From positions 32,001 through 96,000 of the IMG/VR virus record IMGVR_UViG_3300010283_000005: DNA of 64,000 bases, one strand, 5' to 3'. A program made the translations under genes and the position numbers. The notes below the pieces were generated by a model that was given only the letters and a program-made list of their open reading frames with translations, was not told the origin of the DNA and did not search any database. The stretch is from a virus (Duplodnaviria > Caudoviricetes). Below, one piece after another: positions 34,380-56,326 of the stretch (its first letter is position 1; each line of letters starts with the position of its first letter).

Positions 34380-37300
34380 ATGTCTGAGCTCGAAAAACTT
34401 GATTTAGTTAAGGATAGCATAAGACAGCTATTAGCTAAGTCTAAGAATAATTTTGAGAAATTAGGGATCACTCAAGAAGAACTAGTATCTCGAATTACTA
34501 ACTTAGTAGCTAATAGTGGAGAAGCTACGCAAGGTAACTCAGAATTGATCGATATCCGAGTCGGATCGGACGGATCAATATATGCAACTGCAGGTGATGC
34601 AGTCCGAGCAGTAGGCTACCGTTTGGACGAATTCAGTCAGGAAGTTAGTGATCTAGTAGGATCCAAGATTCCTGATGGATTCATTGTAGAGGATAATATG
34701 CTGTATCTAGCTAGAAACGGAGAAATCGTCTCTGAAGGAGTAGAGTTGCCTTCAGGTGGTGGCGGAGGTGGCGGAGGATCCTCATCTACCATCAAACTAA
34801 GGAATGAATCTTTGTCTACTTCTCTAGCTATAGCAGAAGGGGAGAATGCTACTTTGAAATTTAATTTCTCATCTATTGATGAGGATGGAAATGAATCAGG
34901 TAGTGGTACGCTTCAGGTGTATGTGAATAACATCCTGAAACTGAATAAAATCATTCCTCAAGGTAGTAATGAACTGGATGTCACTTCGTTACTATCTGCA
35001 GGTAATAATAGTGTACGTATCAAAGTCACTGATTCTTATGGTTTATCTAAGCAGATTTCTTACTCTATCGCAGTTATCGCATTATCAATTACTTCGACTC
35101 TGGATGAATCACAGCAGTATGATTCAGATGTCTCATTCCGATACATCCCAGTAGGTGCTGTTGAGAAAGTCATTCACTTTGAGCTGGATGGAACTGAGAT
35201 TGCTACAACTACTACTAGCTCATCTGGTCGTCAGATGACTCAGGTCATTCCAGTACAGTCACATGGTACGCATTTACTCCGAGTGTGGATCACTGCTGAG
35301 GTCAATGGTATCTCAATTTCAAGTAACATCTTGATTTATGATATAATGTTTGTTGATTCTAGTATTACTACTCCAATCATTGCCAGTCCATTTGCAGTGA
35401 CTGAAGTTGAGGAGGGTACTTTCATCAGCATCCCTTATACAGTATATGATCCTAAGAATCTGATGTGCGAGGTTACTTTGGAGATTATTTCTAGAGGAAC
35501 TACATCCGATAAAGTAGTAAGTACTTCTAAGGTGACTGTCGATCGTACTAAGCAGACTTGGAATATCAGAAAATATCCTGTAGGCAATACTGTATTCAGG
35601 ATCAAGTATGGATCAGTTACTAAGGAGTTTTTAGTCAAGGTTAAGGAATCAGCAATTCAAGTAGACATTGAGACTAATGGCTTGGAATTCTACCTAGATG
35701 CAGAGGGTAAATCCAATCAGGGATCTGATAAGGATAGCTGGGAATCAAATGGCTATGCTACTCAGTTCACTGATGTGAACTTCTTATCTAATGGATGGGA
35801 TACTGACAGTGAAGGCAATACTCGTCTGAAGCTGGCAGGTGATGCTAGAGCTTACAATCCATTTCAGATCTTCAAGACTGATAGTTCTTACACTGGTCGA
35901 ACTATTGAGGTTGACTTATTAGTATCTGATGTACAGGATCAGAATGCAGTAGTAATAGATTGCATGTCTGGAGATATTGGTCTTCAGATCATGGCTAATA
36001 AGGCAGTACTCAAAAGCGAATTGAGTGAAGTATCAGCTCCATTCGGTACTGATGCTCATATCAGATTATCCTTTGTCATTGATAAGAGTGGTGATGGTTC
36101 TGAAAGAATGATTCTTCTCTATATCAATGGTATTGCATCCGGAGCAATGCAGTATCCTGACGGAGATAACTTCAGTCAGGTTCTTAATCCAGTCGGAATT
36201 ACGATGGGATCAAACTTATGTACTACGTATATCTACTCGATTGCAGTATATGATTACAATATTACTAAGTATCAGATTCTTAATAACTTTATTGCAGGTG
36301 CTCAGGATCCAGCAGAATTAGCTGAACGTTACCATCGTAATGATATATTCGATGAATATAGCAATATAGTTATTGATAAACTACCTGAGGATACTCCTTA
36401 TCTGATCGTAGAATCCGATACTTTACCTCAGTACAAGGGAGATAAGAAGAAACAGATATCTGGTTCGTTCCACTATCCTATGGATATCACTAAGAACTTT
36501 ACTTTTGAAGGAGCAGAGATTGATGTCCAAGGTACTTCTTCTGCAGTATATAAAGTTAAGAACTTAAAATTCAAGTTCAAGGGTGGATTTGTGGATGAAG
36601 ATGGTACTAAGTACGAAGTCTACTCAATTGCTTACGGAGGAATTGGTGAGAGTACTTTCACCTTCAAAGCTGACGTAGCATCTTCAGAAGGTACTAACAA
36701 CGTTATGCTTATGGAAATCTACAATCTGCTCAATCCATATCGCACTCCTCCTCAGCAGGAAGATAACCGAATCAGACAAACTATCAGTAGTATGCCAATA
36801 GTTATGTTTCAGTATATGCCTGCTACTAGTACTACTAAGTTCATCGGAAAGTACAACTTCAATAACGATAAGGGTACTCCTAATACTTTCGGATTTGATA
36901 GTACAAAATGGCCATTATGTCAGAGTTGGGAGTTCCGCAATAATACTTCTAATCGTATGCTATTCAAATCTGATGATTTTGATAGCTTAGATGAGTCTGG
37001 TGAACCAGCATGGCTATCTGACTTTGAAGCTAGGTACCCTGATGGTAGTGCTGACTGCACTCAGCTCAAAAGAGTAGTATCTTGGGTATGTAGTACCGAT
37101 ACTAAGCAAGCTACTGGTAAGACTCTAGCTAGTGCTGTAACTTACGACGGAGTCGAATATAATAAAGATACTGCTGAGTACCGTCTTGCTAAGTTTAAGA
37201 ATGAGTTTGAAGATTACTTCATCAAGGATGCAATAATCTTCTACTTTTTATTCACTGAAGTATTCCTCATGGTGGATAGCCGAGCTAAGAATGCTTTCTT

Positions 37301-40300
37301 GACTACCTGGGATGGTATCCATTGGCTGATGCTGGCCTACGATGGCGATACTGCAATCGGTATCAACAACGAAGGTGCTCTAGTATATGGATATAGCTAC
37401 AACTCAACTGATACAATCGGTTCTCAGGATGTCTTTAATGGTAAGGAATCTGTGCTGTGGCTTAACCTGGAAGCTGCATTCGCTGACGATATCAAGGCTA
37501 TGTATAAAGACTTACGTAGTAATTCTGTATTCTCAGCAGAAGGAGTCATCTCTATTTTTGATAAGCATCAGAGTGCTTGGTCAGAAGCGATCTTCAATGA
37601 GGATGGCTGGTTCAAATACATTGAACCATTGATCAGTGATAATAATGCAGCATATCTGGATATGCTACAGGGTTCTAAGAAATCACAGAGAGACTGGTGG
37701 CTTAAGAATCGATTCTTATATGAGGATAGTAAATACAATGCAGGTGGAGCAGTATCTGATGCCATTACTTTCAGATTGTATACTCCTGCTAACTGGAATG
37801 CTATTGAACCTAATTCTGATATCACTATTACTCCTGCAGCTGATCATTATGTAAGTATCAAATATGGTTCTTATCTGGTGCAGAAAAGAGCTACTGCAGG
37901 CGAGGAAGTCCTCATGGAATGTCCAATGGATACTACCAACGATACTGAGACTTACATCTACAGTGCAGGAGCAGTAGCTGATGTAGGTGACTTAGCTCCA
38001 CTGTATATCGGTTATTGTGATATTTCCAAGGCTACTAAGCTGAAACACCTTAAGATTGGTGATGGTACAAAGGGGTACTCCAACTCGAACTTCACGTCCC
38101 TGTCAGTAGGTAATAATCCTCTGCTAGAAGATATTGATATTCAGAATTGTCCTCAGTTCAAACAGACTCTGGATTTATCTGGATGTGATAACATCAAGTC
38201 AGTCAAGGCTAAAGGATCTGGAGCTACTTCAGTAAAACTTCCGGATGGTGGATATCTAGAAACTCTAGAGCTTCCTAACTCAGTATCTAACTTGACTATC
38301 AAGAAGCATACTAAGTTCAAGACTTTGAGCATGGATAGTTATGCATCTCTGACTACCTTATGGGTTGAAGATACTCCTAATATTCCAGTTGAGGATATCG
38401 TGAGCTCTGCAACTCATCTGAATCGAGTCCGATTGACTAATATCAATTGGTCAACTGATAAGATTGATACTATCCTGAAGCTAGCTAAGTGCGCTGGACT
38501 TGACGACTACGGTAATAATACTGATACAGCTTGGGTGACTGGTACTGTGACTATCGATACCTTGTATAGTCATGATCTAGATACAATCAAATCAGCATTC
38601 CCGTACCTGACTGTCAAATATAATCATCTAATTCATGTAGTTACATTCCTGAATGAAGATGGCTCATTCTTATCTAAGCAGGAAGTTGAGGATAATAACA
38701 ATGCAGATACTCCTCAGGATCCTACTAAGGCATATGATAAGCATTATTACTATGTCTTCAAGGGATGGGATACGACTTATACTAAGGTCAAGAAAGACTT
38801 AACGATCAAGGCTACGTATGACTATATCACTCAGACTTATCATCTGAAGTTATACAAGAATAAATCAGATTCTAATCCAGCAGCTGAAGTTGACGTACTC
38901 TATGAGAATACGTTCACTTACGATAAGTCACTATTCACTACTGACGATTCAGTATTAGCTGGTTGGACTAATGATGATGGTACCCTATTTGAAGATAACT
39001 TCATGTTCGATTCGATGGCAGTGATCAACTCTGCAGGTAATCCAGTAGATATCAAACTGTATGCTAAACGATATACTATTGAACTTCCTAGTCAGTCCAG
39101 CAACTTATCTGACTTGAACTATGGTCAGATTAAGGCTGTTAGTAATATGATTCAAGGTCAGACTATGGAAGGAGCTTCTATCAAGTACTTCTCTGATACT
39201 CGAGAATACATCATTACTAACTCCAAGAATGGTACTACTGTATCAGTGGCAGTAGGCGATGTCAAGGATATCGTTCTTAGAGATGGAGAACCTATCACAC
39301 TTGCAGTTCTTGATTTCAAGCATGATTATCAGGATTTAGAGGAATCTAAGGGTACTGGTATGACAATTGGATTCAAGAACTTGATGGCTAAGACTCAGCA
39401 GATGAATAAGGGTACTAAAACTAAGTACAATTATACACTAGGTGGAGTCAAGGCTGATGCTACTACGTTCTCGCATGAGGTAAGTACAGAAGAAGCAGTC
39501 TCTGGATACTGTGAGCTAAAGGCTGCTAGTCAGTCTTACATCTCCTTGATTAAGAAAGAATCTGCATCTGGAGAAGTTACTACCTGGGCATTTGACCGTA
39601 GAGGATTCTACTGTATGCAGGATCTATCAGGTGATTCTAAGCCTAGTACTAATACTTGGTACACTGCTGACGATGATCCTAATACTTATAAATTTGGTAA
39701 GATGCTTCTACAGGATAACTCTGCTATCGATTGGATGAGTACTCAGCTGCAGAAGTATGCTATTCAAGGTAGTACTACTAAGTTTAGTAACTTCGGAGGT
39801 ATGATTATTGATACTACTGCTCATGATAATTTGTATAATGCAGATTCAGCAGTGAGATTCTACAGTGACTACACTAACGATTGGAACAACTTCACTGAAT
39901 TAACTCAGAATGCTATAATCAAGATCCCAGTAGTAGCAGGAGATACGGTTACGGTATATGCTTATACTAGTGCTCGTAATACTAATGGTTATCGTGATAC
40001 TGATCTGAGAGACTACTTGATCAACGAGCTGTACTATCTGTTACCACTAGGAGTCAGAGAATTGATTATTCCAGTAGTCAAGAAGTTCTCCATTGGTAAT
40101 AGATGCCCTATCATTGATTACGTTATTGATCCGATCTGGCTACTAAGTTCTCGAGAAGTCAATGGCTTCAATTCGGATCCGTATGATAAAGAAGGTAAGG
40201 TTTATCCTATCTTCAGTAATAATGAGTCACGTAAGAAGTACTTAGCTAATGGTACAGGTGATGTGTACTGGTGGTGGTTGCGTGGTCCTGGTGTTAGTGG

Positions 40301-40397
40301 TTCGGGCAGTTTCTGTAGTGTGTATACGGATGGTTATCCGAGCGGCAACGACTGGGCTTACCACTCTGGTGGTGTCTCCCCTAGCTTCTGTTGGTAA
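34380..40397 (+). CDS. large tail fibre/receptor-binding protein; DGR1 target with a C-terminal C-type-lectin-fold VR
   Basis: [10 protein letters not shown] attachment motif, CotH-like core, LRR-like and InlB B-repeat-like segments, ends WWLRGP...GVSPSF containing VR1. Confidence 0.88.
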   Translation: MSELEKLDLVKDSIRQLLAKSKNNFEKLGITQEELVSRITNLVANSGEATQGNSELIDIRVGSDGSIYATAGDAVRAVGYRLDEFSQEVSDLVGSKIPDGFIVEDNMLYLARNGEIVSEGVELPSGGGGGGGGSSSTIKLRNESLSTSLAIAEGENATLKFNFSSIDEDGNESGSGTLQVYVNNILKLNKIIPQGSNELDVTSLLSAGNNSVRIKVTDSYGLSKQISYSIAVIALSITSTLDESQQYDSDVSFRYIPVGAVEKVIHFELDGTEIATTTTSSSGRQMTQVIPVQSHGTHLLRVWITAEVNGISISSNILIYDIMFVDSSITTPIIASPFAVTEVEEGTFISIPYTVYDPKNLMCEVTLEIISRGTTSDKVVSTSKVTVDRTKQTWNIRKYPVGNTVFRIKYGSVTKEFLVKVKESAIQVDIETNGLEFYLDAEGKSNQGSDKDSWESNGYATQFTDVNFLSNGWDTDSEGNTRLKLAGDARAYNPFQIFKTDSSYTGRTIEVDLLVSDVQDQNAVVIDCMSGDIGLQIMANKAVLKSELSEVSAPFGTDAHIRLSFVIDKSGDGSERMILLYINGIASGAMQYPDGDNFSQVLNPVGITMGSNLCTTYIYSIAVYDYNITKYQILNNFIAGAQDPAELAERYHRNDIFDEYSNIVIDKLPEDTPYLIVESDTLPQYKGDKKKQISGSFHYPMDITKNFTFEGAEIDVQGTSSAVYKVKNLKFKFKGGFVDEDGTKYEVYSIAYGGIGESTFTFKADVASSEGTNNVMLMEIYNLLNPYRTPPQQEDNRIRQTISSMPIVMFQYMPATSTTKFIGKYNFNNDKGTPNTFGFDSTKWPLCQSWEFRNNTSNRMLFKSDDFDSLDESGEPAWLSDFEARYPDGSADCTQLKRVVSWVCSTDTKQATGKTLASAVTYDGVEYNKDTAEYRLAKFKNEFEDYFIKDAIIFYFLFTEVFLMVDSRAKNAFLTTWDGIHWLMLAYDGDTAIGINNEGALVYGYSYNSTDTIGSQDVFNGKESVLWLNLEAAFADDIKAMYKDLRSNSVFSAEGVISIFDKHQSAWSEAIFNEDGWFKYIEPLISDNNAAYLDMLQGSKKSQRDWWLKNRFLYEDSKYNAGGAVSDAITFRLYTPANWNAIEPNSDITITPAADHYVSIKYGSYLVQKRATAGEEVLMECPMDTTNDTETYIYSAGAVADVGDLAPLYIGYCDISKATKLKHLKIGDGTKGYSNSNFTSLSVGNNPLLEDIDIQNCPQFKQTLDLSGCDNIKSVKAKGSGATSVKLPDGGYLETLELPNSVSNLTIKKHTKFKTLSMDSYASLTTLWVEDTPNIPVEDIVSSATHLNRVRLTNINWSTDKIDTILKLAKCAGLDDYGNNTDTAWVTGTVTIDTLYSHDLDTIKSAFPYLTVKYNHLIHVVTFLNEDGSFLSKQEVEDNNNADTPQDPTKAYDKHYYYVFKGWDTTYTKVKKDLTIKATYDYITQTYHLKLYKNKSDSNPAAEVDVLYENTFTYDKSLFTTDDSVLAGWTNDDGTLFEDNFMFDSMAVINSAGNPVDIKLYAKRYTIELPSQSSNLSDLNYGQIKAVSNMIQGQTMEGASIKYFSDTREYIITNSKNGTTVSVAVGDVKDIVLRDGEPITLAVLDFKHDYQDLEESKGTGMTIGFKNLMAKTQQMNKGTKTKYNYTLGGVKADATTFSHEVSTEEAVSGYCELKAASQSYISLIKKESASGEVTTWAFDRRGFYCMQDLSGDSKPSTNTWYTADDDPNTYKFGKMLLQDNSAIDWMSTQLQKYAIQGSTTKFSNFGGMIIDTTAHDNLYNADSAVRFYSDYTNDWNNFTELTQNAIIKIPVVAGDTVTVYAYTSARNTNGYRDTDLRDYLINELYYLLPLGVRELIIPVVKKFSIGNRCPIIDYVIDPIWLLSSREVNGFNSDPYDKEGKVYPIFSNNESRKKYLANGTGDVYWWWLRGPGVSGSGSFCSVYTDGYPSGNDWAYHSGGVSPSFCW
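40278..40384 (+). repeat. DGR1 variable repeat (VR1)
   Basis: Ungapped match to 40937-41043; all 19 mismatches are opposite TR adenines. Confidence 0.97.
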
Positions 40398-40422
40398 GCT
40401 TGAATTATTGGAGGATTAACTT

Positions 40423-40908
40423 ATGTCGGTGTATGAAAGCGAACGTAGGAAATCTACTAGAGATTTTATCAAATATGCTAGAGCAATGCAGCTAAAGTCA
40501 TTAAGTTATACTTCTCAATTTCCTGAGAAGTATACTGATATGGCTAAATACATAAACAATCTAGCATTTGAAGTGCATGATCAAGCTAAGAGAGCAGAAG
40601 ATTATCCTGATAATTTTGTACAAGATTTAGTACAAATTAGAATCTACCTACTGAGTTCGCGAGCTGCTCTCACTAGTCTGATATCTCAAGTTGATTTAGC
40701 TTATGAATTATTTCCACTTAGTGGATATTCATATACTAATAGGAGGAATAACGATGAAGAATCTGATCAGAAGATCGAAGTCGCTAGTCTTAAGGATTTA
40801 AATAAAAGTACTAGAATTCTTAGAGACTGGTCAGCTTCTCTATTTGATGCATTAACTGCATTAGATGAAGCTATCAAGCATATAGATGGCAGGATATCCT
40901 GCCCTTGA
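40423..40908 (+). CDS. avd: DGR accessory variability determinant (Avd, four-helix bundle)
   Basis: MSVYESERRKS...FPEKY...A N-terminus typical of Avd; lies between VR and TR. Confidence 0.75.
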   Translation: MSVYESERRKSTRDFIKYARAMQLKSLSYTSQFPEKYTDMAKYINNLAFEVHDQAKRAEDYPDNFVQDLVQIRIYLLSSRAALTSLISQVDLAYELFPLSGYSYTNRRNNDEESDQKIEVASLKDLNKSTRILRDWSASLFDALTALDEAIKHIDGRISCP

Positions 40909-40936
40909 ATATGTAGGTTGCATTCTGTATTACCCA

Positions 40937-41043
40937 TTGCGTGGTCCTAATGTTAGTAATTCGAACAATTTCTGTAATGTGAATACAGATGGTAATCCGA
41001 ACAACAACAACTGGGCTAACAACTCTAATGGTGTCTCCCCTAG
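40937..41043 (+). ncRNA. DGR1 template repeat (TR1)
   Basis: 14 AAY codons in the VR frame; invariant non-A bases. Confidence 0.97.
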
Positions 41044-41274
41044 ATCCTGCAATTCAGCAGATTTAAATCCTAGCTAGGCATGCTATTATCTGCCTTATTA
41101 CAGAAGGAGAATGCAACCTTCCACTTAAAGTGGTAAATAAGTACCTTAGATATGATTAGGAGGACGCTTCTTGCATGGTTAGCTGCTTAAGCATTTCAGC
41201 TAATTTCATTCCTAGTATCATTTAGCAGTAAGTCAGAATGCTTAGTATCAAGTACTGTACGAGGTAACCCTAGA

Positions 41275-42441
41275 ATGAATAGTGTAGAACGACATGAAGC
41301 TCGTTATCAACGTAGACGAGCTAGAAGACTTAAACGCAAGTCTGAGTATGATTCAGGTTGCGTGACTACTGAAGATGTATTTACTTATGATAATTTATAT
41401 GCTTCGTACAAGAAGTGCTTGAGAGGAGTGAATTGGAAATATAGCGTGCAATCCTATCAGGCTGATGCTCCTATCCTAGTATATCAATCATACCGTGAAA
41501 TAGCTGAAGATAGACTAGTAGTCAGACCTGGAAGTAGATTCATTCTATATGAGCGTGGTAAATTAAGGAAGATTCGAGGAGTCAATATCAAGGAGCGAGT
41601 TATTCAGAAATGTTTAAGTGATCACTGCTTGAAACGAGTACTAGGCAGATCATTGATCTATGATAATCATGCTAGTAGAGCAGGTAAGGGTACTCGTAAG
41701 GCTAGAGAACGACTACAATGTCATCTTGAACGTCAGATCAGAAGGCATGGTCCTAATAGCTATGCTCTAGTATTCGACTTTTCAGGATTCTTCGATAGTT
41801 TCGATCACAATCTAGTACGTCAGTATCTTATGAATACTGTAGGTGATCCTAGAATTGTGGACCTAACTATGAAATTTGTTAACTCATCAGATATAGGTAG
41901 AGGACTCGAGTTAGGTAGTGAAGTCAATCAGGATTTAGCTATCAGTGTATCTAGTATTATTGATCACTTTGTGAAAGAAGTACTGCAGATACATAATTAT
42001 GGTCGATATATGGATGATGGATACATGCTTCACGAAAGTAAAGAGTATCTAGAGCAGTGTTTAGTAAGATTCAAAGAATTCGTAGAATCACTAGGATTCA
42101 AGCTAAATACTAAGAAGACTAGGATAATCTCTTTGACCAAGGATGGATTCCAATTCTTAAAGACTAAGTATCGAGTCACTCAGACTGGTAAGATTATAAA
42201 GAGATGCGTTCATTCTAGCGTAGTTAGAATGAGACTTAAGCTCAAGAAACTAAGGATCAAACTTACTGAGGGTAAATTGAAATTCCTTAGTATCTACTCA
42301 GCATTTCAGTCCTGGAAATCTAGTATATCACACTGCAACTGCTACGTCACAGTGAAATCAATGACTAAATTATTCCTCAGGCTTTATCATAATGAATGCA
42401 CTGAAGCAGGATTTATCAATAAATTAAGGAGGTGCTTATAA
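41275..42441 (+). CDS. DGR reverse transcriptase 1
   Basis: ERGKLRKI, GKGT, FDFSGFFDS, GLELGSEVNQ, YGRYMDD, FLK. Confidence 0.95.
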   Translation: MNSVERHEARYQRRRARRLKRKSEYDSGCVTTEDVFTYDNLYASYKKCLRGVNWKYSVQSYQADAPILVYQSYREIAEDRLVVRPGSRFILYERGKLRKIRGVNIKERVIQKCLSDHCLKRVLGRSLIYDNHASRAGKGTRKARERLQCHLERQIRRHGPNSYALVFDFSGFFDSFDHNLVRQYLMNTVGDPRIVDLTMKFVNSSDIGRGLELGSEVNQDLAISVSSIIDHFVKEVLQIHNYGRYMDDGYMLHESKEYLEQCLVRFKEFVESLGFKLNTKKTRIISLTKDGFQFLKTKYRVTQTGKIIKRCVHSSVVRMRLKLKKLRIKLTEGKLKFLSIYSAFQSWKSSISHCNCYVTVKSMTKLFLRLYHNECTEAGFINKLRRCL

Positions 42442-43181
42442 TGTACTATAAAGTAGTAAGCGATGATAAGATTATCGATGTCCTAGAATCAGCTAGCTTC
42501 GTCAGATATCAGAGCAAGAATGATCTAATGCTAGTATGCGATAAGGATTCTGCAGAAGGAGTACTATCTTCAGATGGTAATTCGATTTATCGTATCGTAG
42601 AAGAGTGCTCAACTAAGCTTCAAGAATATGATCTAGTAGAATTGTATGAGATCGATCAGAAGGAATTCGATATCTTAGCTGATCTGATTAAATCCAATGA
42701 TACTCCTGTAGATGATCCTTCTGAGGATTCTCAGGACATTGAAGCTCTAACCCTAGATTATGCTAAGACTAAAGCTATCTCGAAGTTGAATACTATTTGT
42801 CATGAGAAGATTGTTGAGGGATTCACTATGAGTCTCGATAATGGAGAGAAATATCATTTTGATATGGCTATTGAAGATCAGCTCAATATCAACTCACTAG
42901 CTGCATTCGTGGCTAAGGGTATGACTATCATTCCATACAATCTGCCTAATGATTGCGTATTCCTGAGCGTGGATGAAGTCAATCGACTGATTGTTGCAGC
43001 ATCTGCTCATAAGATCAGTCAGCTATCCTACTATAAATCTCTCAAGAGATATATCATGAGTATGACTAGTCTTACTAAGGTAGGTAAGGTAGAATATGGC
43101 ATGGAAATTCCTGAGAAGTATTGGTCTTCAGTATATAAGGAGATTCAGGATGGCAATTTCGATTTAAGTAGCCTGATGTAA
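42432..43181 (+). CDS. DUF4376-like putative tail-fibre assembly protein (likely start 42441)
   Basis: HFDMAIEDQLNI, YYKSLKRYI, VEYG; paralog at 55544. Confidence 0.6.
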   Translation: MLIMYYKVVSDDKIIDVLESASFVRYQSKNDLMLVCDKDSAEGVLSSDGNSIYRIVEECSTKLQEYDLVELYEIDQKEFDILADLIKSNDTPVDDPSEDSQDIEALTLDYAKTKAISKLNTICHEKIVEGFTMSLDNGEKYHFDMAIEDQLNINSLAAFVAKGMTIIPYNLPNDCVFLSVDEVNRLIVAASAHKISQLSYYKSLKRYIMSMTSLTKVGKVEYGMEIPEKYWSSVYKEIQDGNFDLSSLM

Positions 43182-45560: not shown

Positions 45561-45625
45561 GGGTTTCCTTGTAAGGGTAAGCCTGATGTCTTATCATATC
45601 TAATCAGAGAAAGGAGGTAATCGAC

Positions 45626-46141
45626 GTGGCAGTAACCTTGCTGAAAGGACACGTAAGTAGAGCTCTTGACTTCTATAATAAATCTGATATTTATTTAGGA
45701 TTAGGTAAAACTACTCCTTGGGAGGAGGGTGAGAGTAATCCTCCTACTCCATTGAATACAGATAGTCTAGTAGAGATTGCTGGATATAAGAAAGTCGAGT
45801 CCAAGTTCTTAGTTATTCCTGACGATACTGGTACTGGAGAGCTATCCTATCAGAATCGTAGATGGAAGATTGTACCTTATGATCAGGCACTTGAGAAAGG
45901 TGCTCGATGGGTATATATCTCTACTTACATCGCATACAATGAATTCCCGACTGATCTAGTATATAGGCAGATTGGAGTATTCACTGGACTGAAAGTCAAA
46001 TCCAATGTGACTTCTAGTTCATTCGCTTTGACTCCTGATCAGGTCGAGAGTCAGGGTATCCCTGAAGCACTTGATAATCGTACTCCGATCTATCGAGAAG
46101 CAGACCAGCGAGAACGTCTCACAATGATCATCGAATTTTAG
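45626..46141 (+). CDS. baseplate protein (gp8-like)
   Basis: YLGLGKTTPW, ARWVYI, YRQIG, NRTPIYR..DQRE...IIEF. Confidence 0.7.
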   Translation: MAVTLLKGHVSRALDFYNKSDIYLGLGKTTPWEEGESNPPTPLNTDSLVEIAGYKKVESKFLVIPDDTGTGELSYQNRRWKIVPYDQALEKGARWVYISTYIAYNEFPTDLVYRQIGVFTGLKVKSNVTSSSFALTPDQVESQGIPEALDNRTPIYREADQRERLTMIIEF

Positions 46142-46152
46142 GGGGGGGGGGG
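46141..46152 (+). repeat. G12 homopolymer at the RBS position of the endonuclease gene
   Basis: 12 consecutive G ending 7 nt before ATG 46160. Confidence 0.85.
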
Positions 46153-46159
46153 AATCCAA

Positions 46160-46960: not shown

Positions 46961-47121
46961 TCAGGTATCATCCCATTTAACTATATAAGATATGAGGTAA
47001 ACATTATGCCATCAAGCATAATCATCCGACTCATTGCTGAATATATGAATCTCATACTTCAGCTAATGGTAATAATCAACTTCAAATAACAACTTCGTAA
47101 ATTAAGGAAGGAGGATAAATA

Positions 47122-50457: not shown

Positions 50458-50466
50458 GAATTCTAT

Positions 50467-50494
50467 GAGGACTAGGTGAGATACCCTAGTCCTC
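50467..50494 (+). terminator. hairpin/possible terminator
   Basis: GAGGACTAGG / CCTAGTCCTC 10-bp stem. Confidence 0.5.
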
Positions 50495-50519
50495 TATTTG
50501 AAGAAGGAGGTAGTGCTGT

Positions 50520-50690
50520 ATGGCATATCGTAAGATTGATCCTGAAACAGGATTCATCGAGTACATTCGCACTCCTGAGGAGAATTCTATTATTCAGATG
50601 CGTCAGGAGAATGCAGAAATGAAAGCAGAGATTGAGAACTTGAAGAAGCAGTTATCTCAATCTAGTAATAATAATAAGAAGGAGGGATAA
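50520..50690 (+). CDS. small coiled-coil protein (56 aa, not in the ORF track)
   Basis: AAGGAGG RBS; MAYRKIDPETGFIEYIRTPEENSIIQMRQENAEMKAEIENLKKQLSQSSNNNKKEG. Confidence 0.7.
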   Translation: MAYRKIDPETGFIEYIRTPEENSIIQMRQENAEMKAEIENLKKQLSQSSNNNKKEG

Positions 50691-50693
50691 CCT

Positions 50694-52682
50694 ATGGGTG
50701 ACAATAGAGTAACTTCAACTATGGTCGAACTGAATATGAGTAGGGGTGACCAAGCTACTCTTAGAGACTTTCTAGATACTAGTAAGGTCCTACCTATAGG
50801 TGCATTCTGCAAGACTTCTGTAGCTCAAGCTATTACAGATGCTATCAACTACTTAACTGCTAAGCAAGATGGTGGTGTCTATGTTCCAGCTGATAAATCC
50901 AATAAGGCTACTCAGATTGTATCTTCAATTGACAAATCAGGTAAGTTGAAGATCAATTATATCACTTCTAATTACCGTTATCCTATCAATAAAGAAGCTC
51001 GTCCATTCACTGGAGATGCTTGGCAGATCGGTGACTTAGTATATAATACTGACACTGATGAGAATAAATGCCTAGGATGGGTATGTACAGAAGCAGGTAT
51101 CCCTGGATCGTGGGGAGTAATCGGATTTATTAGGAGCTGGGCTACTGAGCTTGAAGAAGTGACTGCATTGCCTGATCCAGGTCCAATGCAGATCAATCGT
51201 CAGGTAGTATGTGCTGGTAGAGCTTACATCTGCAAGCTAGTAGATGGTGAGTACAACTGGTACTGGATGGACTATGCTTATGGTAATAGCAGTCAGCATC
51301 CTACTACTGACCTACGAGTAGGACTCCCTTACTACAATATACAGACAGGCTTACCTGAGTGGTGGAATGGTTCAGAATGGGTAGCAGTAGCTAAGGCTAA
51401 CCATACTCATGAAGACCTAGGTGCATCAGATACTCCTAAATATCTGACTAAGTCAGTAGAGAATACTAATGATAAGCTGATCTATCTACCTAATTCTCGA
51501 GAAGGATTCCTGTCAGTCAATTTAATCGGTAAACCTGGCATGGTAGCTAGTGAACTGAGTATCTCTTCACTAGAGAATCAGGCTAAGTTTGATGAATTAG
51601 TCAAACTCGATGATACTAATTCTAGTTATCAAGTTGATGGTGATACTCTGACCTTAGTTAAGAGTACTGACTCAACTGCTCAGATTCAAGTAGCTAAGAT
51701 TCCTATCCGAGTCAAAGCAGGAGCTCAGTATCGATGCTACTATGATCTCGAGACTACTAATGAAGCTAAAATCATCGTAGGTATGAAGAAGACTGGAATC
51801 GTAGCTTCATTCAAACCTGATGGTAGTGTCGAGTGCAACTTTGATGGTACTGAAGATACTGATGCTGAGCTAGTCTTCATGTTTGATCTTAATACTAAGA
51901 TCAATAGCATTGCTTACATAAAGAATTTCTTCTTAGTAGACATCGCTAATAAATCAGTTGACTTCGTACTTGAAGATTACATCCCAGGTCAAGAACTCAG
52001 ATGCGTTAGGAATTATGCAGCTGATGAGCTTATTGATAATGTCTTCTATAAGAGAGTAGTCGACCTTAAGCTGTATACTTATGGTGATGAGGTAGAGTTC
52101 GCAAACCAAGGTACATTTGCTAATGATGGATATTTAGTTATCCTTCAGAATCATAAGCATTCTTACTTAGGTAGATCAATGTATGTGCCTAAGGATGATC
52201 AAACTGCATCTGCAATTAAGATCAGCGGATTCAGTACTGAGGCTTATGATAAGGTACGTTTAGGTAGTACTGATGGACTCAAGATCGGAATCAGTTCTGA
52301 AGGTATGGTAGCTTACAACATTCCTAATAGTTTAGTAGGTAATTATTCTGTAACCTATTACTTGAAGTACTTAGCTGAGAAGATCAATACAGCTTCTATA
52401 ATTCCATTAGCAGAACCAGTAGTTAGTGAGTTAGTAATGTATCCAGCTCCTATTAGATGCCATACTCGTGGTGTCTTATTACTGAGTAAGTTTAATGTGA
52501 ACTTAGATATCAAGTATCCTGCTAATGCTGCTGCAGTGACTGAGATGACTGCTGATATCTTGCAGAAGGTTGCTAATCAGAGAATCAAGTACAATGAAGC
52601 TCCTCTAAGCTGGTCTGATAAGATCACTTGGGGTACAGCTGCAAAAAATAATAAGAATTGGAGAGGTGAGAAGAATGCCTAA
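50694..52682 (+). CDS. tail fibre/structural protein
   Basis: GDLVYN..GWVCT.AG.PG.W and GLPEWWNGSEWV fibre motifs; location. Confidence 0.65.
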   Translation: MGDNRVTSTMVELNMSRGDQATLRDFLDTSKVLPIGAFCKTSVAQAITDAINYLTAKQDGGVYVPADKSNKATQIVSSIDKSGKLKINYITSNYRYPINKEARPFTGDAWQIGDLVYNTDTDENKCLGWVCTEAGIPGSWGVIGFIRSWATELEEVTALPDPGPMQINRQVVCAGRAYICKLVDGEYNWYWMDYAYGNSSQHPTTDLRVGLPYYNIQTGLPEWWNGSEWVAVAKANHTHEDLGASDTPKYLTKSVENTNDKLIYLPNSREGFLSVNLIGKPGMVASELSISSLENQAKFDELVKLDDTNSSYQVDGDTLTLVKSTDSTAQIQVAKIPIRVKAGAQYRCYYDLETTNEAKIIVGMKKTGIVASFKPDGSVECNFDGTEDTDAELVFMFDLNTKINSIAYIKNFFLVDIANKSVDFVLEDYIPGQELRCVRNYAADELIDNVFYKRVVDLKLYTYGDEVEFANQGTFANDGYLVILQNHKHSYLGRSMYVPKDDQTASAIKISGFSTEAYDKVRLGSTDGLKIGISSEGMVAYNIPNSLVGNYSVTYYLKYLAEKINTASIIPLAEPVVSELVMYPAPIRCHTRGVLLLSKFNVNLDIKYPANAAAVTEMTADILQKVANQRIKYNEAPLSWSDKITWGTAAKNNKNWRGEKNA

Positions 52683-54048
52683 AGTTAATTTTGACTACAT
52701 TGGTAGTAATGAACAATTAAGTCCTGCCAAGGTCAACGCTAACTTCCAGACACTAGAGAATATGATTAACTCTGGTGAGCTAAGTGGCGGTGGCGGAGGT
52801 GGTACTGTCACGGGTTCTGAGTATGGAGTTGAATGGGATATCACTAATAAAAGATTCACTAGACTGAATAATGCATTAGGATTGTCTGCTACGCTCGGAT
52901 CCAATGGCATTGTCAGCTCAGATTTTGATAATGTCTACCCTTGGTCGGAGATGAGACGATGCAATCTAAGTGATGACGGAGTAGTCACTGCCTACTACGG
53001 AGACTCGAATTTCTCAGAGACTGGATCTAATGGTCAGGTCATGGTCGAGATTCCTAAGTTCTATTATAAGACAATTCCAGTAGCCTACACAGTGAGCAAT
53101 GGAGATGTAGTTCCTACTAAAGTACAGTTCTACATATCTGATGCTAAACTGGATGGATACTCTCTTCATCCAGCATTTATCCGAGATAATGTCATCCTTG
53201 ATTATATCTACCTTGGAGCGTATGAAGCATCTGTCTACGATGTATCAGCTGCTAGGTATGTAGCTGACTTCGGATTCGATGGTGCTAATGATATCCTCGG
53301 ATCAGTCAAAGGTCTCAAGCCAGTAAGTGGAAAGACTTCTACTTTCACTAGAGCAATTGCTCGTAATATGGCTCGTAGACGTGGTGCTGGATGGGAACAG
53401 CAGGATTTCTTATCCACTAGTGCAGTTCAGCTCATGATGTTGATAGAATTCGCATCATTCGATAGTCAGACTGATATTGGTGCAGGTGTCTCTAATAAGA
53501 CTGATGATGGATCCAGTAACATGGCTGAAAATACTGGATACACCTCTGAATTAGGTAATAAATCTGGTAATGCTGCTACTTCTAGTAGCTCTTATAGAGC
53601 AGTTACTTATCGTGGTATTGAGAACCTATGGGGCAATATTTGGGTATGGATCGATGGCATCAATATCCAGAACAGTAGCCTTGGGTATCCTTGGATTGCT
53701 GATCATGGATTCGCTGATGATATCATGACTGAACCATATCATCGGATCAATGGTAAGATTCCTGCATCTGATGGATACATCGATAAGCTTATTTATGATG
53801 TATCCAATGACTTTGCAATGCTACCTTCTTCAGCTGGTGGTGCATCAAATACTCCTGTCAACAGCTATATGTGGCAGAGAGTAGCATCTACTTCAATGAT
53901 GGTGGCTGGGCTTGGTGGTAGCTGGCTTTATGGCTCTGCTTGTGGTGGCTGGGGCTGGGGTCTGGCTTATGCCTCTTCTTATTCTGGTCGGGATATCGGG
54001 GCTCGGCTTGGATTCTACAAGAAGACGACTCATGCTCAAGCTGCGTAA
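52666..54048 (+). CDS. tail fibre/receptor-binding protein; DGR2 target with an Mtd/FGE-like C-type-lectin fold (likely start 52675)
   Basis: VMVEIPKFYY, LHPAF, YLGAYEA, YRGIENLWGNIWVW, GGSW...IGARL containing VR2. Confidence 0.9.
   Translation: MRRMPKVNFDYIGSNEQLSPAKVNANFQTLENMINSGELSGGGGGGTVTGSEYGVEWDITNKRFTRLNNALGLSATLGSNGIVSSDFDNVYPWSEMRRCNLSDDGVVTAYYGDSNFSETGSNGQVMVEIPKFYYKTIPVAYTVSNGDVVPTKVQFYISDAKLDGYSLHPAFIRDNVILDYIYLGAYEASVYDVSAARYVADFGFDGANDILGSVKGLKPVSGKTSTFTRAIARNMARRRGAGWEQQDFLSTSAVQLMMLIEFASFDSQTDIGAGVSNKTDDGSSNMAENTGYTSELGNKSGNAATSSSSYRAVTYRGIENLWGNIWVWIDGINIQNSSLGYPWIADHGFADDIMTEPYHRINGKIPASDGYIDKLIYDVSNDFAMLPSSAGGASNTPVNSYMWQRVASTSMMVAGLGGSWLYGSACGGWGWGLAYASSYSGRDIGARLGFYKKTTHAQAA
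53902..54015 (+). repeat. DGR2 variable repeat (VR2)
   Basis: Ungapped match to 54225-54338; 25 of 26 mismatches are opposite TR adenines. Confidence 0.97.
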
Positions 54049-54189
54049 TCGGTGCTAATTAAAAATTAGCATCTTTCCTATAAATTGTAGGTTATATCCT
54101 ATGAGTGACCGATGGTACTAACCATAATTGATCGCAGGTGATTTGATCACTTGTTCCATGAACCTAGAACTGCTCAGTCGCATCTATGT

Positions 54190-54220
54190 AATTTATGGGA
54201 GGGAATCCCTCCCATAAATT
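54190..54220 (+). other. perfect 15-bp inverted repeat immediately 5' of TR2
   Basis: AATTTATGGGAGGGA-A-TCCCTCCCATAAATT. Confidence 0.9.
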
Positions 54221-54224
54221 TCAA

Positions 54225-54338
54225 GTGGCTAAACTTGGTGGTAACTGGAATAATGGCTCTAATTGTGGTAGCTGGTACTGGAATCTGAATAATACCTCTT
54301 CTAATTCTAATCGGAATATCGGAGCTCAGCTTAAATTC
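54225..54338 (+). ncRNA. DGR2 template repeat (TR2)
   Basis: AAT/AAC-rich copy of VR2. Confidence 0.97.
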
Positions 54339-54525
54339 TTACTATAATATTGGATATGGTGTAGGATATGACCTGACCTCTCGGTCGAACATAAAAATAG
54401 CAGAACTTTAATCTGTGTTAGTAGGTCCTTCATTTTATGATTTATATTATACATTGATGTGGCTCGGACGCTCAGAACTGCGTAAGAATCCAATAAATAA
54501 ATACAAAGGAGGATAACCTCGAGGT

Positions 54526-55623
54526 ATGAAACGCATCGGGAATCTATACGATGAAGTATGTAGTATCGAGAACCTGCGTGAAGCACATCAGCGTGCACGT
54601 AAAGGTAAAGGATGGTACGCTGAGGTAATTGCTGTCGATAATGACTTGGATAATAAACTTGAAGAATTGTCCAAGATGATGAAAGAACACCGCTACCGTA
54701 CTAGTGAGTATACGATCTTTAAGAAGAAGGAAGGTAAGAAAGTCAGAGAAATCTGTAAACTTCCTTATTATCCTGATCGAATCGCTCAATGGGCAGTAAT
54801 GCTCGTAATTGAGAAGTATCTCACTAAGAATCTGATTATTGATACATACTCAGCAATCAAGGGTAGAGGAATTCATAAAGGTCTCAAGAAGATCAAAGAA
54901 TGCATACTTAATGATGCTGAAGGGACTAAGTACTGCTTAAAGATGGATGTTCATCATTACTACGCAAGTATTAATCATGATATCCTCAAAGCTACTTTCG
55001 CTAGATTATTTAAAGATCCAGACTTATTATGGCTGATCGGAGAGATTATCGATTCTACTCCGGGAGATACTGGTATTCCAATCGGTAATTATTTATCGCA
55101 ATGGAGTGGCAATATCTACTTGAGTAGGCTAGATCACTGGCTGAAAGAAGTTAAGCATGTCAAGTATTACTTCCGATACATGGATGACATGATCATCCTA
55201 TGTGATAGTAAAGAAACCTTGCATCAACTGAGAAAAGATATCTCTGAGTACTTAGAGACTAATCTTAAACTGAAACTTAAATCTAACTGGCAAGTCTTCC
55301 CTACTTTAGTAAGAGGAATTGACTTCTTAGGATACAGATTCTTCCGTGATTATGTATTACTGAGACAATCTATCGCTGATAAGTTCAAATCTACTATGCT
55401 TAAGATTAAGCATAAGTTAGTTACTGGAAAGTCCATCACTTACCATGACTTCTGCTCAGCTAATAGCTATAAGGGATGGCTAAAGCACTGTGATTCATGG
55501 CGAATAAGACTTAAGTATATAGTACCTATTCAACCTAGTCTAGATGACTATTATAGAAAGGAGATCAAGAATCATGGAACCAAAACGAATCGATTATCAG
55601 GTCCAGTCTACTGTCAAGCCTGA
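54526..55623 (+). CDS. DGR reverse transcriptase 2
   Basis: MKRIGNLY, PYYPDRI, GRGIH, LKMDVHHYY.SI, GIPIGNYLSQ, YFRYMDD, GIDFLGY. Confidence 0.96.
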   Translation: MKRIGNLYDEVCSIENLREAHQRARKGKGWYAEVIAVDNDLDNKLEELSKMMKEHRYRTSEYTIFKKKEGKKVREICKLPYYPDRIAQWAVMLVIEKYLTKNLIIDTYSAIKGRGIHKGLKKIKECILNDAEGTKYCLKMDVHHYYASINHDILKATFARLFKDPDLLWLIGEIIDSTPGDTGIPIGNYLSQWSGNIYLSRLDHWLKEVKHVKYYFRYMDDMIILCDSKETLHQLRKDISEYLETNLKLKLKSNWQVFPTLVRGIDFLGYRFFRDYVLLRQSIADKFKSTMLKIKHKLVTGKSITYHDFCSANSYKGWLKHCDSWRIRLKYIVPIQPSLDDYYRKEIKNHGTKTNRLSGPVYCQA

Positions 55624-56326
55624 TGCTATTGCTATGACTGACTTCGAAGTCTTTATCAGAACTAACATCTCTGCTAAAGAAGTAGAAGATGAGATGTCCT
55701 CTAGTAGCAAGAAGAAATCTACTCATACGATGTATATCTATACTGAAATTGTATATGATAAGAACGAGTACTTCACTAAGCTAGCAGAATCTACTGATCT
55801 ACCAGTAGTGGTCGATCGAGCTGCTATGTCAGATGAAGACCTAATTGCTTACCTCAAGAATTACTTCAATCAGAAGTGCGAAGATGCACTAGCAGTTGGT
55901 ATTGAAGTTGATGTACCTGACTTAGGTAGAAAAAACTTCAGCTGCAAGCTAGAAGATCAGGTCAATATCGAAGCTATAGCTAAGGGCATCACTGCTGATA
56001 CTACTGAGGTTTATTATCACTCCAATGGTGATAAATGCCGTCTGTATGATGTAGCTACCTTTGCAGAGATCACTGGTAAGGTGTTCGTATGCAAGTACCA
56101 GCAGACTGCATACTGTAATCTACTCAAATCCTATGTAGAGGGTGAAGCTACTGCGGATGAGCGTAGAACTATCGAGTATGGAGATGTACCTTCTGAGGAG
56201 TTCAGCAATGAGCTATCTAAGATCGTACTGCAAGGAGTTACTTCTACTGCAGCTAGCTTCCTTACTCCAAATGAGACTTTCAACAAAGTCATCGAGTCAC
56301 TAGTTTCTCAGTTAACTAGCAATTAA
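55544..56326 (+). CDS. DUF4376-like putative tail-fibre assembly protein (likely start 55574)
   Basis: NFSCKLEDQVNI, YHSNGDKCRLY, YCNLLKSYV, IEYG. Confidence 0.6.
   Translation: MTIIERRSRIMEPKRIDYQVQSTVKPDAIAMTDFEVFIRTNISAKEVEDEMSSSSKKKSTHTMYIYTEIVYDKNEYFTKLAESTDLPVVVDRAAMSDEDLIAYLKNYFNQKCEDALAVGIEVDVPDLGRKNFSCKLEDQVNIEAIAKGITADTTEVYYHSNGDKCRLYDVATFAEITGKVFVCKYQQTAYCNLLKSYVEGEATADERRTIEYGDVPSEEFSNELSKIVLQGVTSTAASFLTPNETFNKVIESLVSQLTSN

Follow-up and report, generated by a model that had tools for sequence, protein, structure and literature searches.

The phage analysed here carries two separate diversity-generating retroelements (DGRs) within its baseplate/fibre module. It is highly probable that each operates by canonical mutagenic retrohoming, that one of them (DGR2) is ancestral, and that the other (DGR1) is a cassette of a sub-lineage. 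DGRs are the only natural means known by which prokaryotes and their viruses hypermutate proteins in a targeted manner. The textbook phage DGR has one reverse transcriptase (RT) and one template repeat (TR), which at most two targets have in common. The window, i.e., the whole stretch of DNA that was analysed (64,000 nucleotides, positions 32,001 to 96,000 of IMG/VR record IMGVR_UViG_3300010283_000005), is part of a 142,407-bp viral record that has terminal repeats and a CheckV rating of 100%. The whole 142-kb genome contains exactly two RTs (RVT_1), namely, RT1 and RT2, and the two DGRs lie 13 kb apart on the same strand of the tail (baseplate/fibre) module. An initial annotation of this DNA had proposed two intact RTs and two dissimilar TRs, with one variable repeat (VR) each in different tail genes; the RVT_1 matches, the repeat pairs, the failure of the TRs to align with each other, and the YMDD motif present in both RTs bear this out.

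The components of DGR1 follow the order T1, 161-aa ORF, TR1, RT1, and 249-aa ORF (coordinates are those of the window):

34380..40397, + strand: target gene 1 (T1), encoding a 2005-aa tail-fibre-like protein (ORF; PF19789 DUF6273 at the C-terminus)
40278..40390, + strand: VR1, 3'-terminal variable repeat of T1 (81% identity to TR1)
40423..40908, + strand: 161-aa accessory ORF in the avd position (four predicted helices; pI 5.7)
40937..41049, + strand: TR1, template repeat (34 A, 14 AAY codons)
40915..41119, + strand: long-range stem enclosing TR1, a perfect 12-bp pairing of 40915-40926 with 41108-41119 (inverted repeat and MFE fold)
41275..42441, + strand: RT1, DGR-type reverse transcriptase of 388 aa (RVT_1, E 7e-15; phrog_1423, E 2.5e-64; YMDD)
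42432..43181, + strand: 249-aa DUF4376/tail-fibre-like ORF, last gene of the DGR1 module (PF14301, E 3e-5, slightly below the curated cut-off; phrog_1348, which is annotated as tail fibre, E 7e-18)

Over the 113 nt compared in DGR1, 20 of the 34 TR adenines are substituted and 20 of the 21 mismatches fall on A (hypergeometric P for chance placement 3e-12), the sole non-A mismatch being located at the 3' edge of the repeat. Setting the repeat boundary at 105 nt reproduces the earlier count of 19 substituted adenines out of 32, and the count of 25 out of 32 given for DGR2 was likewise recovered. In both DGRs, the TR/VR mismatches occupy codon positions 1 and 2. VR1 ends 7 nt from the T1 stop codon; no clear GC-rich hairpin was found 3' of it, and the RNA fold of the TR1 region as a whole was not better than that of shuffled sequences (z -0.6). 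Motif 4 of RT1 reads LGSEVNQ, compared with LGSQxSQ in all 11 relatives of its clade, and thus departs from the [ILV]GxxxSQ signature by an N in place of S. In the RT tree, RT1 clusters with RTs from phage loci that bear TR/VR pairs.

DGR2 is laid out more simply, in the order T2, TR2, and RT2:

52666..54048, + strand: target gene 2 (T2), encoding a tail protein of 460 aa that resembles Mtd/TaqVP (match to phrog_5302, annotated as tail protein, E 3e-103; AF2 and Foldseek)
53902..54016, + strand: VR2, 3'-terminal variable repeat of T2 (77% identity to TR2)
54051..54073, + strand: terminator-like 10-bp stem-loop with a T-run, right after the T2 stop codon
54187..54223, + strand: hairpin adjoining the 5' end of TR2 (inverted repeat; compensatory changes)
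54225..54339, + strand: TR2, template repeat (32 A, 10 AAY codons)
54089..54374, + strand: long-range stem enclosing TR2 (54089-54101 with 54362-54374), followed by a conserved 3' hairpin (~54371-54390)
54526..55623, + strand: RT2, DGR-type reverse transcriptase of 365 aa (RVT_1, E 2e-17; phrog_1423, E 4e-125; YMDD)
55544..56326, + strand: 260-aa DUF4376-like ORF, overlapping the 3' end of RT2 (Atlas feature match to DUF4376 clusters, 0.93)

Here, the comparison over 115 nt places 25 of 26 mismatches on A (hypergeometric P 6e-18), so that 25 of the 32 TR adenines are substituted; the lone non-A mismatch is a T>G change. VR2 ends 32 nt from the T2 stop codon. Its G/C-rich 3' block (GGGGCTCGGCTTGG in the VR, GGAGCTCAGCTTAA in the TR) contains four A>G differences that are the same in every strain and cluster member (...IGARLGF constant), and in sequence it resembles an IMH/IMH*-like element; the stem-loop at 54051..54073 is a possible target-side hairpin. 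Among the four lineages compared, base pairs with both sides changed support the hairpin at 54187..54223, and the TR2 region folds better than shuffled sequences (z -4.95). Motif 4 of RT2 is the canonical IGNYLSQ, as expected of a DGR-clade RT. Orthologues of the 260-aa ORF are kept 3' of RT2 in all lineages (L108-L112, L116, and L117). No ORF of at least 60 aa was found between the T2 stop codon and RT2, and the profiles PF05635 and PF22296 have no match anywhere in the genome.

The initial annotation had called both DGRs complete, a term that calls for qualification with respect to Avd: DGR2 is devoid of an avd-like ORF, and the 161-aa ORF of DGR1 is not demonstrably an Avd. The model of this ORF has four helices (pLDDT 62), a structural neighbour in the Atlas bears PF05635 (TM 0.65/0.79), and homologues stand immediately 5' of the TR/RT in seven RT1-clade loci. 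The ORF has no match to PF05635 or PF22296 in Pfam, is acidic (pI 5.7 versus about 9.5 in Avds), yielded only generic helical bundles with Foldseek and VIA, and gave no specific Avd match in a PDB sequence search. Since these searches were unspecific or empty, it is treated as an accessory ORF, for which an Avd-like fold is possible.

Both VRs lie in lectin-type domains of otherwise dissimilar proteins, with no similarity detected between T1 and T2. Residues 1860-2004 of T1 match PF19789 DUF6273 (E 9e-16), a domain published as C-type-lectin-like (PMC10743442; bioRxiv 10.1101/2024.10.15.618418), which agrees with the lectin end proposed earlier for this protein and places VR1 in a C-type-lectin-like C-terminal domain. 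T1 also matches phrog_14959 and phrog_24896, and its N-terminal ~90 aa are similar to the N-terminus of the adjacent GDSL fibre. For T2, the suggestion of an Mtd-type end was supported at the level of structure: the AF2 model (pLDDT 81) has TaqVP (5vf4, E 1e-10) and Mtd (1yu4, E 3e-4) as Foldseek matches at probability 1.0, followed by weaker matches to FGE (best E 8e-3) and TvpA (2y3c, E 0.06). On this model, VR2 is placed in a C-type-lectin fold domain. TaqVP and Mtd (1yu0-1yu4) are the best structural matches, with 12-17% sequence identity to T2 and modest whole-chain TM-scores of 0.26-0.49, and the PDB holds no sequence-level match to T2.

Marker genes and genome size point to a complete ~142-kb SPO1-like/Herelleviridae-like myophage with a contractile tail. 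The neighbours of both targets give domain matches to Phage_base_V/PAAR/gp25/Baseplate_J, BW3TFN, and DUF4815, and the DUF4815 protein is 40-47% identical to proteins of SPO1-like Bacillus phages and of Streptococcus phage GXN1 (a myophage). The phage combines baseplate genes of a contractile tail (DUF4815 and BW3TFN included), a genome in the range of ~130-150 kb, and markers of a Gram-positive host, as is typical of SPO1-like phages; the endolysin domains comprise CW_7 repeats, a glucosaminidase, and a CHAP domain. Relatives were sampled from human (Hadza) gut, animal gut, and digester, with L107/L110 and runs X2/X3 stemming from Hadza/Nepal and animal-gut data sets, and the host would be a Gram-positive bacterium of gut or digester, most likely a gut anaerobe. 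The 22-kb two-DGR region had no megablast match among GenBank phages, and exact-pattern scans of IMG/VR, in which near relatives may have been withheld, with TR-derived patterns (A replaced by N) gave none either. No copy of the phage promoter motif GAGY-N17-CGTTTATA occurs between 34 and 57 kb, and Sigma-70-like sites in the region do not exceed chance.

TR1 and TR2 do not align, no likeness was seen between the TR-flanking RNA stems or the VR 3' ends of the two DGRs, and the genome contains a single VR-like site per TR. Each RT probably serves its own TR only. The two systems might instead be non-orthogonal and partly redundant or cooperative, if the other TR were also served by one of the RTs or by the accessory protein of DGR1; the lack of an accessory gene in DGR2 would fit this. 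Against this, the TRs, their flanking stems, and the VR 3' ends are dissimilar, neither TR has a second site, and DGR2 diversifies normally in lineages without DGR1. Moreover, the accessory-free architecture A is known from 75 of 372 DGRs (given as 29%), so that Avd is not defining for all DGRs (PMC5758913). Such cross-service is therefore regarded as unlikely.

The distribution of the cassettes among relatives is in line with separate systems. DGR2 was found in all five lineages examined and is syntenic in L108/L112, L116, and L117. The syntenic 141.6-kb relative L112 is without the whole 8.8-kb DGR1 module; its p541 orthologue is followed directly by the GDSL fibre, so that nothing remains there of T1, the accessory ORF, RT1, or p249. 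Since the L112 lineage still has a hypervariable VR2, DGR2 needs nothing from DGR1. Because a syntenic relative lacks the entire module, DGR1 looks like an added fibre-plus-DGR cassette, the alternative being loss of the module elsewhere.

Natural variation was compared between assembled strains or contigs and cluster proteins. L107 and L110 have TR1 in common at 100% identity but differ in VR1, and the same applies to TR2 and VR2 in L109, L110, and L111; in relatives with 100% conserved TRs, the flanks are just 89-95% identical. All VR differences among the relative loci compared are at TR-A sites. The T1 cluster has four members with four different VR1s (n=4), and 12 columns with at least three residues occur in the last 100 aa versus at most one per 100 aa elsewhere. 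Two exceptions to variation at TR-A codons were noted in VR1, namely, W>R in P0169, which affects a codon without template A, and one missing codon in P0168. The 90% cluster of T2 has 93 members, all 14 aligned proteins differ, almost only at TR-A codons, and VR2 is likewise hypervariable in two other lineages. A search for shorter proteins spanning VR1 found just distant DUF6273 proteins. The interruption of the run X3 contigs at VR1 also counts in favour of natural activity. Judged from these sequences, both VRs are diversified in nature (for VR1 in a sample of n=4), so that the monomorphic VR that had been considered a counter-indication was not encountered: both are polymorphic across populations at template-A codons. 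It is quite improbable that one cassette is a fossil in which old TR/VR differences persist in a VR that is now frozen. For DGR1, the small number of VR1 versions known (just four), the atypical motif 4 of RT1, and an accessory ORF that is not a recognisable Avd would fit such decay; yet between strains in which TR1 is identical and the flanks are 94.5% identical, VR1 identity drops to 83%, with all differences at TR-A sites, every T1 cluster member has its own VR1, and RT1 is intact and retains YMDD. The 93-member cluster settles the matter for DGR2.

With respect to ancestry, RT1 and RT2 are 23% identical and fall in separate clades of the RT tree (support 0.99-1.0). The closest relatives of RT2 show 57-58% identity (IMG/VR), and those of RT1 41% in IMG/VR and 40% in Roseburia phage Shimadzu. 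The layouts differ as well, being target-accessory ORF-TR-RT in DGR1 versus target-TR-RT without accessory gene in DGR2. Together with L112, which has DGR2 only, these data support independent origins of DGR1 and DGR2 and uphold the initial view of them as unrelated and independently acquired. An in-situ duplication followed by divergence, rather than separate acquisition, would account for the shared module and strand and for the DUF4376-like ORF after each RT (249 and 260 aa, 23% identical to each other), but the RTs are only 23% identical, fall in separate clades, and are each closer to RTs of other phage groups, and the target domains and layouts differ, which makes duplication very improbable. 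A chimera, in which the assembler joined two phages with one DGR each, was a concern of the initial annotation and would be compatible with hypervariable repeats breaking assemblies, as in run X3 (Logan), where contigs stop and resume exactly at VR1; it is barely credible given the terminal repeats and CheckV rating, the independent 141,587-bp ENA contig L110 that is contiguous through both cassettes within one 23-kb stretch, the Logan contigs of run X2 that span both, the uniform GC content and GC skew, and the synteny of the intervening genes with relatives. Run X1 yielded a 38-kb contig that extends over 43487-56500 and continues with unlike sequence.

The anatomy, the adenine-restricted differences, the diversification of both VRs, the separate RT ancestry, and the co-linearity in independent assemblies are supported directly, and the preferred reading of two separate retrohoming systems can be outlined as follows. 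Each TR would be transcribed inside a structured RNA, and its own RT would make cDNA with random bases opposite template adenines. By a retrohoming biochemistry that is here presumed, this cDNA would then take the place of the 3'-terminal VR in the neighbouring target gene, and about a dozen surface codons would be randomised in a ligand-binding domain with C-type-lectin fold. DGR2, as the ancestral system of the lineage, would diversify the 460-aa Mtd/TaqVP-like tail protein, and DGR1, as an 8.8-kb fibre-plus-DGR cassette restricted to the present sub-lineage, the DUF6273 tip of the 2005-aa fibre, where T1 may re-use the N-terminal anchor domain of the adjacent GDSL fibre. Both T1 and T2 presumably bind host receptors, which might be a primary and a secondary one, as the initial annotation suggested. 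Since the templates are not common to both targets, the combined repertoire of adsorption proteins would be multiplicative.

More tentatively, no virus may have been documented before in which two DGRs of distinct mechanism, orthogonal to each other, are combined, one without accessory gene and one with a novel acidic helical protein; two receptor-binding proteins of one baseplate would be randomised independently, with a combinatorial adsorption repertoire as the result, in a virulent SPO1-like phage, and DGR1 would be a portable cassette docking into an existing baseplate socket via a shared N-terminal anchor; this wider reading is somewhat more doubtful than not. Such a phage would offer a natural test bed for RT/TR/IMH specificity, with relevance to DGR-based directed-evolution tools such as DGRec, and would allow accessory requirements to be compared in one genetic background, as one cassette has an accessory gene and the other has none. 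It also provides evidence for mobile modules, in that a fibre gene and its DGR appear to move jointly and dock by a shared N-terminal anchor domain, and it adds large SPO1-like phages, presumably virulent ones that infect Gram-positive bacteria of the gut, to the known carriers of active DGRs.

Phages with two DGRs were rare in the records surveyed, and the suspicion in the initial annotation that they might already be common was not borne out. About 150 GenBank phage records contain a DGR-type RT, and a second one was seen in none of them; the 99 IMG/VR loci (or 55 whole records) included one such case. No description of a phage with two or multiple DGRs was found in the literature searched; the reports retrieved concerned cellular multi-DGR genomes and single-DGR two-target phages only. 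The one IMG/VR case is L094, a 55-kb fragment (47% complete) with two DGR-type RTs that are 29% identical and 0.9 kb apart, with motifs LGSQVSQ/YMDD and IGYQSSQ/YVDD; the 20 kb examined contain only one TR/VR pair, so that two complete DGRs are not evident there.

Bordetella phage BPP-1 (mtd-VR, avd, TR, brt) shares its gene order with DGR1 (target-small ORF-TR-RT). Common to both phages are the adenine-only TR>VR differences (here 20 of 21 and 25 of 26 mismatches), a VR at the 3' end of a tail protein with C-type-lectin fold (the T2 model matching Mtd itself), and an IMH/IMH*-like 3' block with fixed TR/VR differences, clearest in DGR2. BPP-1 is, however, a small temperate podophage with one RT and one TR, whereas the present 142-kb SPO1-like myophage has two of each, DGR2 has no avd, and the small ORF of DGR1 is acidic and not recognisable as Avd. 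Among the architectures of Wu et al. 2018 (PMC5758913), DGR2 fits A1 (TR-RT, no accessory) and DGR1 fits B1 (avd-TR-RT) by layout; their accessory class 'CH1' is acidic and 160-169 aa long, and the 2005 aa of T1 recall, by length alone, their category f1 of ~2000-aa phage-associated targets. Unlike in that listing, both architectures occur together in one phage genome here.

Gut phages with one DGR and two targets include the nd4/nd12 'tentaclin' phages (PMC10743442), Toutatisvirus (bioRxiv 10.1101/2024.10.15.618418), and Quimbyvirus (PMC8008677). They likewise diversify two virion or surface proteins, with DUF6273/C-type-lectin targets and a gut habitat, but both of their VRs use the same template, as one RT and one TR serve the two targets; in the present phage, the TR and RT of one target are unrelated to those of the other. 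Several DGRs are carried by ~10% of DGR-positive complete genomes (PMC5758913), and cellular examples are Trichodesmium IMS101, DUSEL4 Nanoarchaeota, and Bacteroides isolates (PMC8867640, PMC4372165, bioRxiv 10.1101/2024.11.15.621889). These also contain more than one RT/TR set, but in multi-megabase genomes and often on different mobile elements, whereas the two DGRs described here belong to the tail module of a single virus, with 13 kb between them.

The 142,407-bp IMG/VR virus record, of which the window comprises bases 32001-96000, has terminal repeats (measured as 123 bp, exact) and a CheckV completeness of 100%. Its contractile-tail baseplate and fibre module spans 29-59 kb on the + strand (window positions, here and below, unless another record is named), and the only two RVT_1 genes of the whole genome, RT1 and RT2, are located in the DGR1 and DGR2 blocks of this module:

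Baseplate genes, first in the module, + strand: gpV-like (Phage_base_V), PAAR, gp25, Baseplate_J, 541-aa protein (weak P2-I-like match)
DGR1 block, after the baseplate genes, + strand: 2005-aa target T1, 161-aa ORF, RT1, 249-aa DUF4376/tail-fibre ORF
DGR1 repeats: VR1 40278-40390; TR1 40937-41049, 34 adenines, 20 substituted, one non-A mismatch (3' edge)
Fibre/baseplate genes between the DGR blocks: 585-aa GDSL-esterase fibre, 153-aa ORF, BW3TFN, GIY-YIG/NUMOD3 homing endonuclease, 1111-aa DUF4815 protein, 662-aa fibre-like ORF
DGR2 block, + strand: 460-aa target T2, RT2, 260-aa ORF
DGR2 repeats: VR2 53902-54016; TR2 54225-54339, 32 adenines, 25 substituted, one non-A mismatch
Lysis genes after the DGR2 block: holin-like ORFs, glucosaminidase-CHAP-CW_7 endolysin

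Taken alone, each cassette is an ordinary DGR. Each VR occupies the very 3' end of its own ORF, the TR/VR mismatches of both cassettes fall at codon positions 1 and 2, their concentration on A has a chance probability of 3e-12 (DGR1) and 6e-18 (DGR2), and TR1 and TR2 contain 14 and 10 AAY codons, respectively. A whole-genome scan with TR adenines as wildcards yielded a single VR for each TR and no match across the DGR1 and DGR2 repeats. The genes and repeat pairs confirm the initial annotation, which had described two RTs, two TRs and two VRs in different tail genes; its substitution counts were reproduced as well, 19 of 32 TR adenines for DGR1 (exactly, with a 105-nt boundary) and 25 of 32 for DGR2. 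The lectin and Mtd-type ends it had assigned to the targets were also recovered: the T1 C-terminus is DUF6273, a domain that two papers describe as C-lec-like and as repeatedly targeted by DGRs of gut phages (PMC10743442; bioRxiv 10.1101/2024.10.15.618418), and T2, modelled with AF2 from a 24-sequence alignment (pLDDT 81), resembles in fold the DGR variable protein TaqVP (E 1e-10) and also Mtd (E 3e-4), with weaker hits to formylglycine-generating enzymes (best E 8e-3) and to TvpA (E 0.06).

Both VRs vary in nature, and a VR monomorphic across populations, raised earlier as a possible objection, was not encountered. In related phages TR1 (L107/L110) and TR2 (L109/L110/L111) are 100% identical to those of the window and the flanking coding sequence is just 89-95% identical, and all VR differences fall at TR-adenine positions. 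The T2 cluster at 90% identity has 93 members, of which 14 full-length ones (window protein included) differ mutually almost only at TR-A codons (K, N, NN, N, Y, N, NN, T, N, N, N, I); the same holds in two other lineages. The T1 cluster has four members in all, with four different VR1s and 12 columns with at least three residues in the last 100 aa versus at most one per 100 aa elsewhere (n=4). In sequencing run X3, contigs end and resume precisely at VR1, separated by a 140-nt contig of lower depth, a hint only, as expected of an assembler meeting a hypervariable site. The VR2 3' end differs from TR2 by four A>G differences (VR GGGGCTCGGCTTGG, TR GGAGCTCAGCTTAA) fixed in all strains, and this block looks, from its sequence, like an IMH/IMH* pair.

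The two cassettes are unrelated by several measures. TR1 and TR2 cannot be aligned, in line with the lack of evident similarity seen in the initial annotation, no similarity was found between T1 and T2, and RT1 and RT2 are 23% identical and fall in separate groups (support 0.99-1.0) in a maximum-likelihood tree of 36 RTs, the phylogeny proposed earlier as a check. The closest relatives of RT2 are RTs on contigs of gut phages, 35-45 kb long (up to 57-58% identical), with Psychrobacillus phage Perkons (47%) closest in GenBank, along with crAss-like phages; those of RT1 reach at most 41% in IMG/VR and 40% in Roseburia phage Shimadzu. In RT2 both motifs are canonical (IGNYLSQ, YMDD); RT1 shares YMDD, but its LGSEVNQ departs from the LGSQxSQ of its clade. 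DGR1 is laid out as target-161-aa ORF-TR-RT, and DGR2 as target-TR-RT without any ORF in between. Perkons (MT325768.1), a cultured 137-kb Antarctic soil phage, has at 12555-16389 an avd-less layout as in DGR2 (hypothetical ORF, gap, RT, overlapping ORF), annotated as 'reverse transcriptase' only.

DGR2 and its trailing 244-260-aa ORF are syntenic in all lineages examined (L108/L112, L109, L110/L111, L116, L117), with T2 identities from 63% to 95%. On the 141,628-bp contig of L112, the GDSL fibre comes immediately after J and an orthologue of the 541-aa protein (647 aa, 52% identical), the 8.8-kb block from T1 to the 249-aa ORF being missing at the syntenic position, and L117 has no RT1-type module within 10 kb upstream of T2. 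DGR1 would thus be a cassette added later to a lineage already holding DGR2, although the block may instead have been lost in the other lineages. VR2 remains hypervariable in the L112 lineage without DGR1, so DGR2 is independent of DGR1. T1 residues 7-93 are 30% identical to the N-terminus of the window GDSL fibre and 41% to that of L112; this shared domain of ~90 aa (34398-34660 in T1, 43285-43590 in the GDSL fibre) is probably a common baseplate-attachment module, which suggests that T1, if a later import, docks via the same baseplate domain. Together, the RT tree, the unalignable TRs, the differing layouts and the DGR1-less L112 support the earlier interpretation of two independent DGRs.

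An assembly artefact, or chimera, is ruled out by L110, a 141,587-bp ENA contig with T1 (3' part), the 161-aa ORF, RT1, intervening fibre genes, T2 and RT2 within 23 kb, and by the Logan contigs of run X2, which cover both cassettes. A 28.6-kb contig size occurs among members of both target clusters, suggesting that one such contig may carry both targets.

The DUF4815 protein is 40-47% identical to counterparts in SPO1-like Bacillus phages and a Streptococcus myophage, which, with the CW_7 endolysin, points to a SPO1/Herelleviridae-like phage of a Gram-positive host. Other parts of the module also vary. The PAAR spike-tip gene (30277-30597) is located between gpV and gp25 in this phage, as in L107, and is missing there in L112. 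The GIY-YIG/NUMOD3 gene (46142-47005; ORF 46160-46960) is absent from relatives in runs X2, X3 and X8, as clean skips of 862-892 nt, and from L107/L110/L112, which marks it as a mobile element inserted between BW3TFN and the DUF4815 gene. In three related phages, 1400-1600 nt of unlike sequence takes the place of the GDSL esterase portion, the C-terminal two-thirds, of the 585-aa fibre (43554-45033), and versions of 679-837 aa occur in relatives; this fibre is a third variable one, recombination-driven, beside both DGR targets. Relatives in runs X1 and X2 have a 790-nt insertion at 45635-45647, where the BW3TFN gene region begins.

A long-range stem of 12 perfect base pairs (40915-40926 with 41108-41119) closes around TR1. 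For DGR2, a terminator-like hairpin follows the T2 stop (54051-54073), a hairpin maintained by compensatory changes in four lineages precedes TR2 (54187-54223), and a 13-nt stem (54089-54101 with 54362-54374) encloses TR2, followed by an invariant small hairpin; the leader-TR-spacer folds far better than shuffles (z -4.95). This small hairpin, the 20-nt element ACCTGACCTCTYGGTCRAAC (54371-54390), and a AGAATCCA box at about 54490, before RT2, hardly differ among four lineages with otherwise divergent flanks, and are candidate spacer-RNA elements for cDNA priming.

The 161-aa ORF sits in the avd position, with four predicted helices (pLDDT 62), homologues directly upstream of TR/RT in seven RT1-clade loci and an ESM-Atlas structural neighbour in PF05635 (TM 0.65/0.79). 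However, it had no match to Avd models, Foldseek and VIA returned generic helical bundles only, and its pI is 5.7 versus a mean of ~9.5 for Avd (PMC5758913). Given this mixed evidence, it is treated as a conserved, putative accessory ORF of the DGR whose family is uncertain; in size and charge it is reminiscent of the 'CH1' class described by Wu et al. After each RT, and slightly overlapping it, lies an acidic DUF4376-like ORF (42432-43181, pI 4.5; 55544-56326, pI 4.7; 23% mutual identity), the one behind RT2 being kept in all lineages. They may act in fibre assembly or as chaperones, or represent a DGR accessory not yet recognised.

Dual systems were not common in the records surveyed, a point on which the earlier claim had been open to refutation. 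GenBank phage records with a match number 149 for RT2 and 43 for RT1, with one matching place per record. Among 55 whole IMG/VR records and 99 loci with related RTs (each RT plus 10 kb either side), only the phage fragment L094 has a second DGR-type RT, with a single TR/VR pair (8841-8973 with 9554-9686) in the 20 kb examined. Its RTs (9959-13269; LGSQVSQ/YMDD and IGYQSSQ/YVDD) are 0.9 kb apart and 29% identical, with a 132-aa ORF between them. Large catalogues may hold unremarked dual-DGR cases.

In the literature searched there are cellular genomes with several DGRs and one-DGR phages with two targets, and no phage with two complete, unrelated DGRs was found. New here are, namely, I) two unrelated cassettes, both diversifying in nature, paired on two fibre proteins of the same SPO1-like phage, II) the probable modular origin of one cassette, and III) the difference between the two cassettes in that only one has an accessory gene. 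We infer that the two may be orthogonal and used combinatorially, with receptor roles. Among the architectures of Wu et al. 2018 (PMC5758913), the DGR2 layout corresponds to A1, and that of DGR1 to B1 if the 161-aa ORF is Avd.
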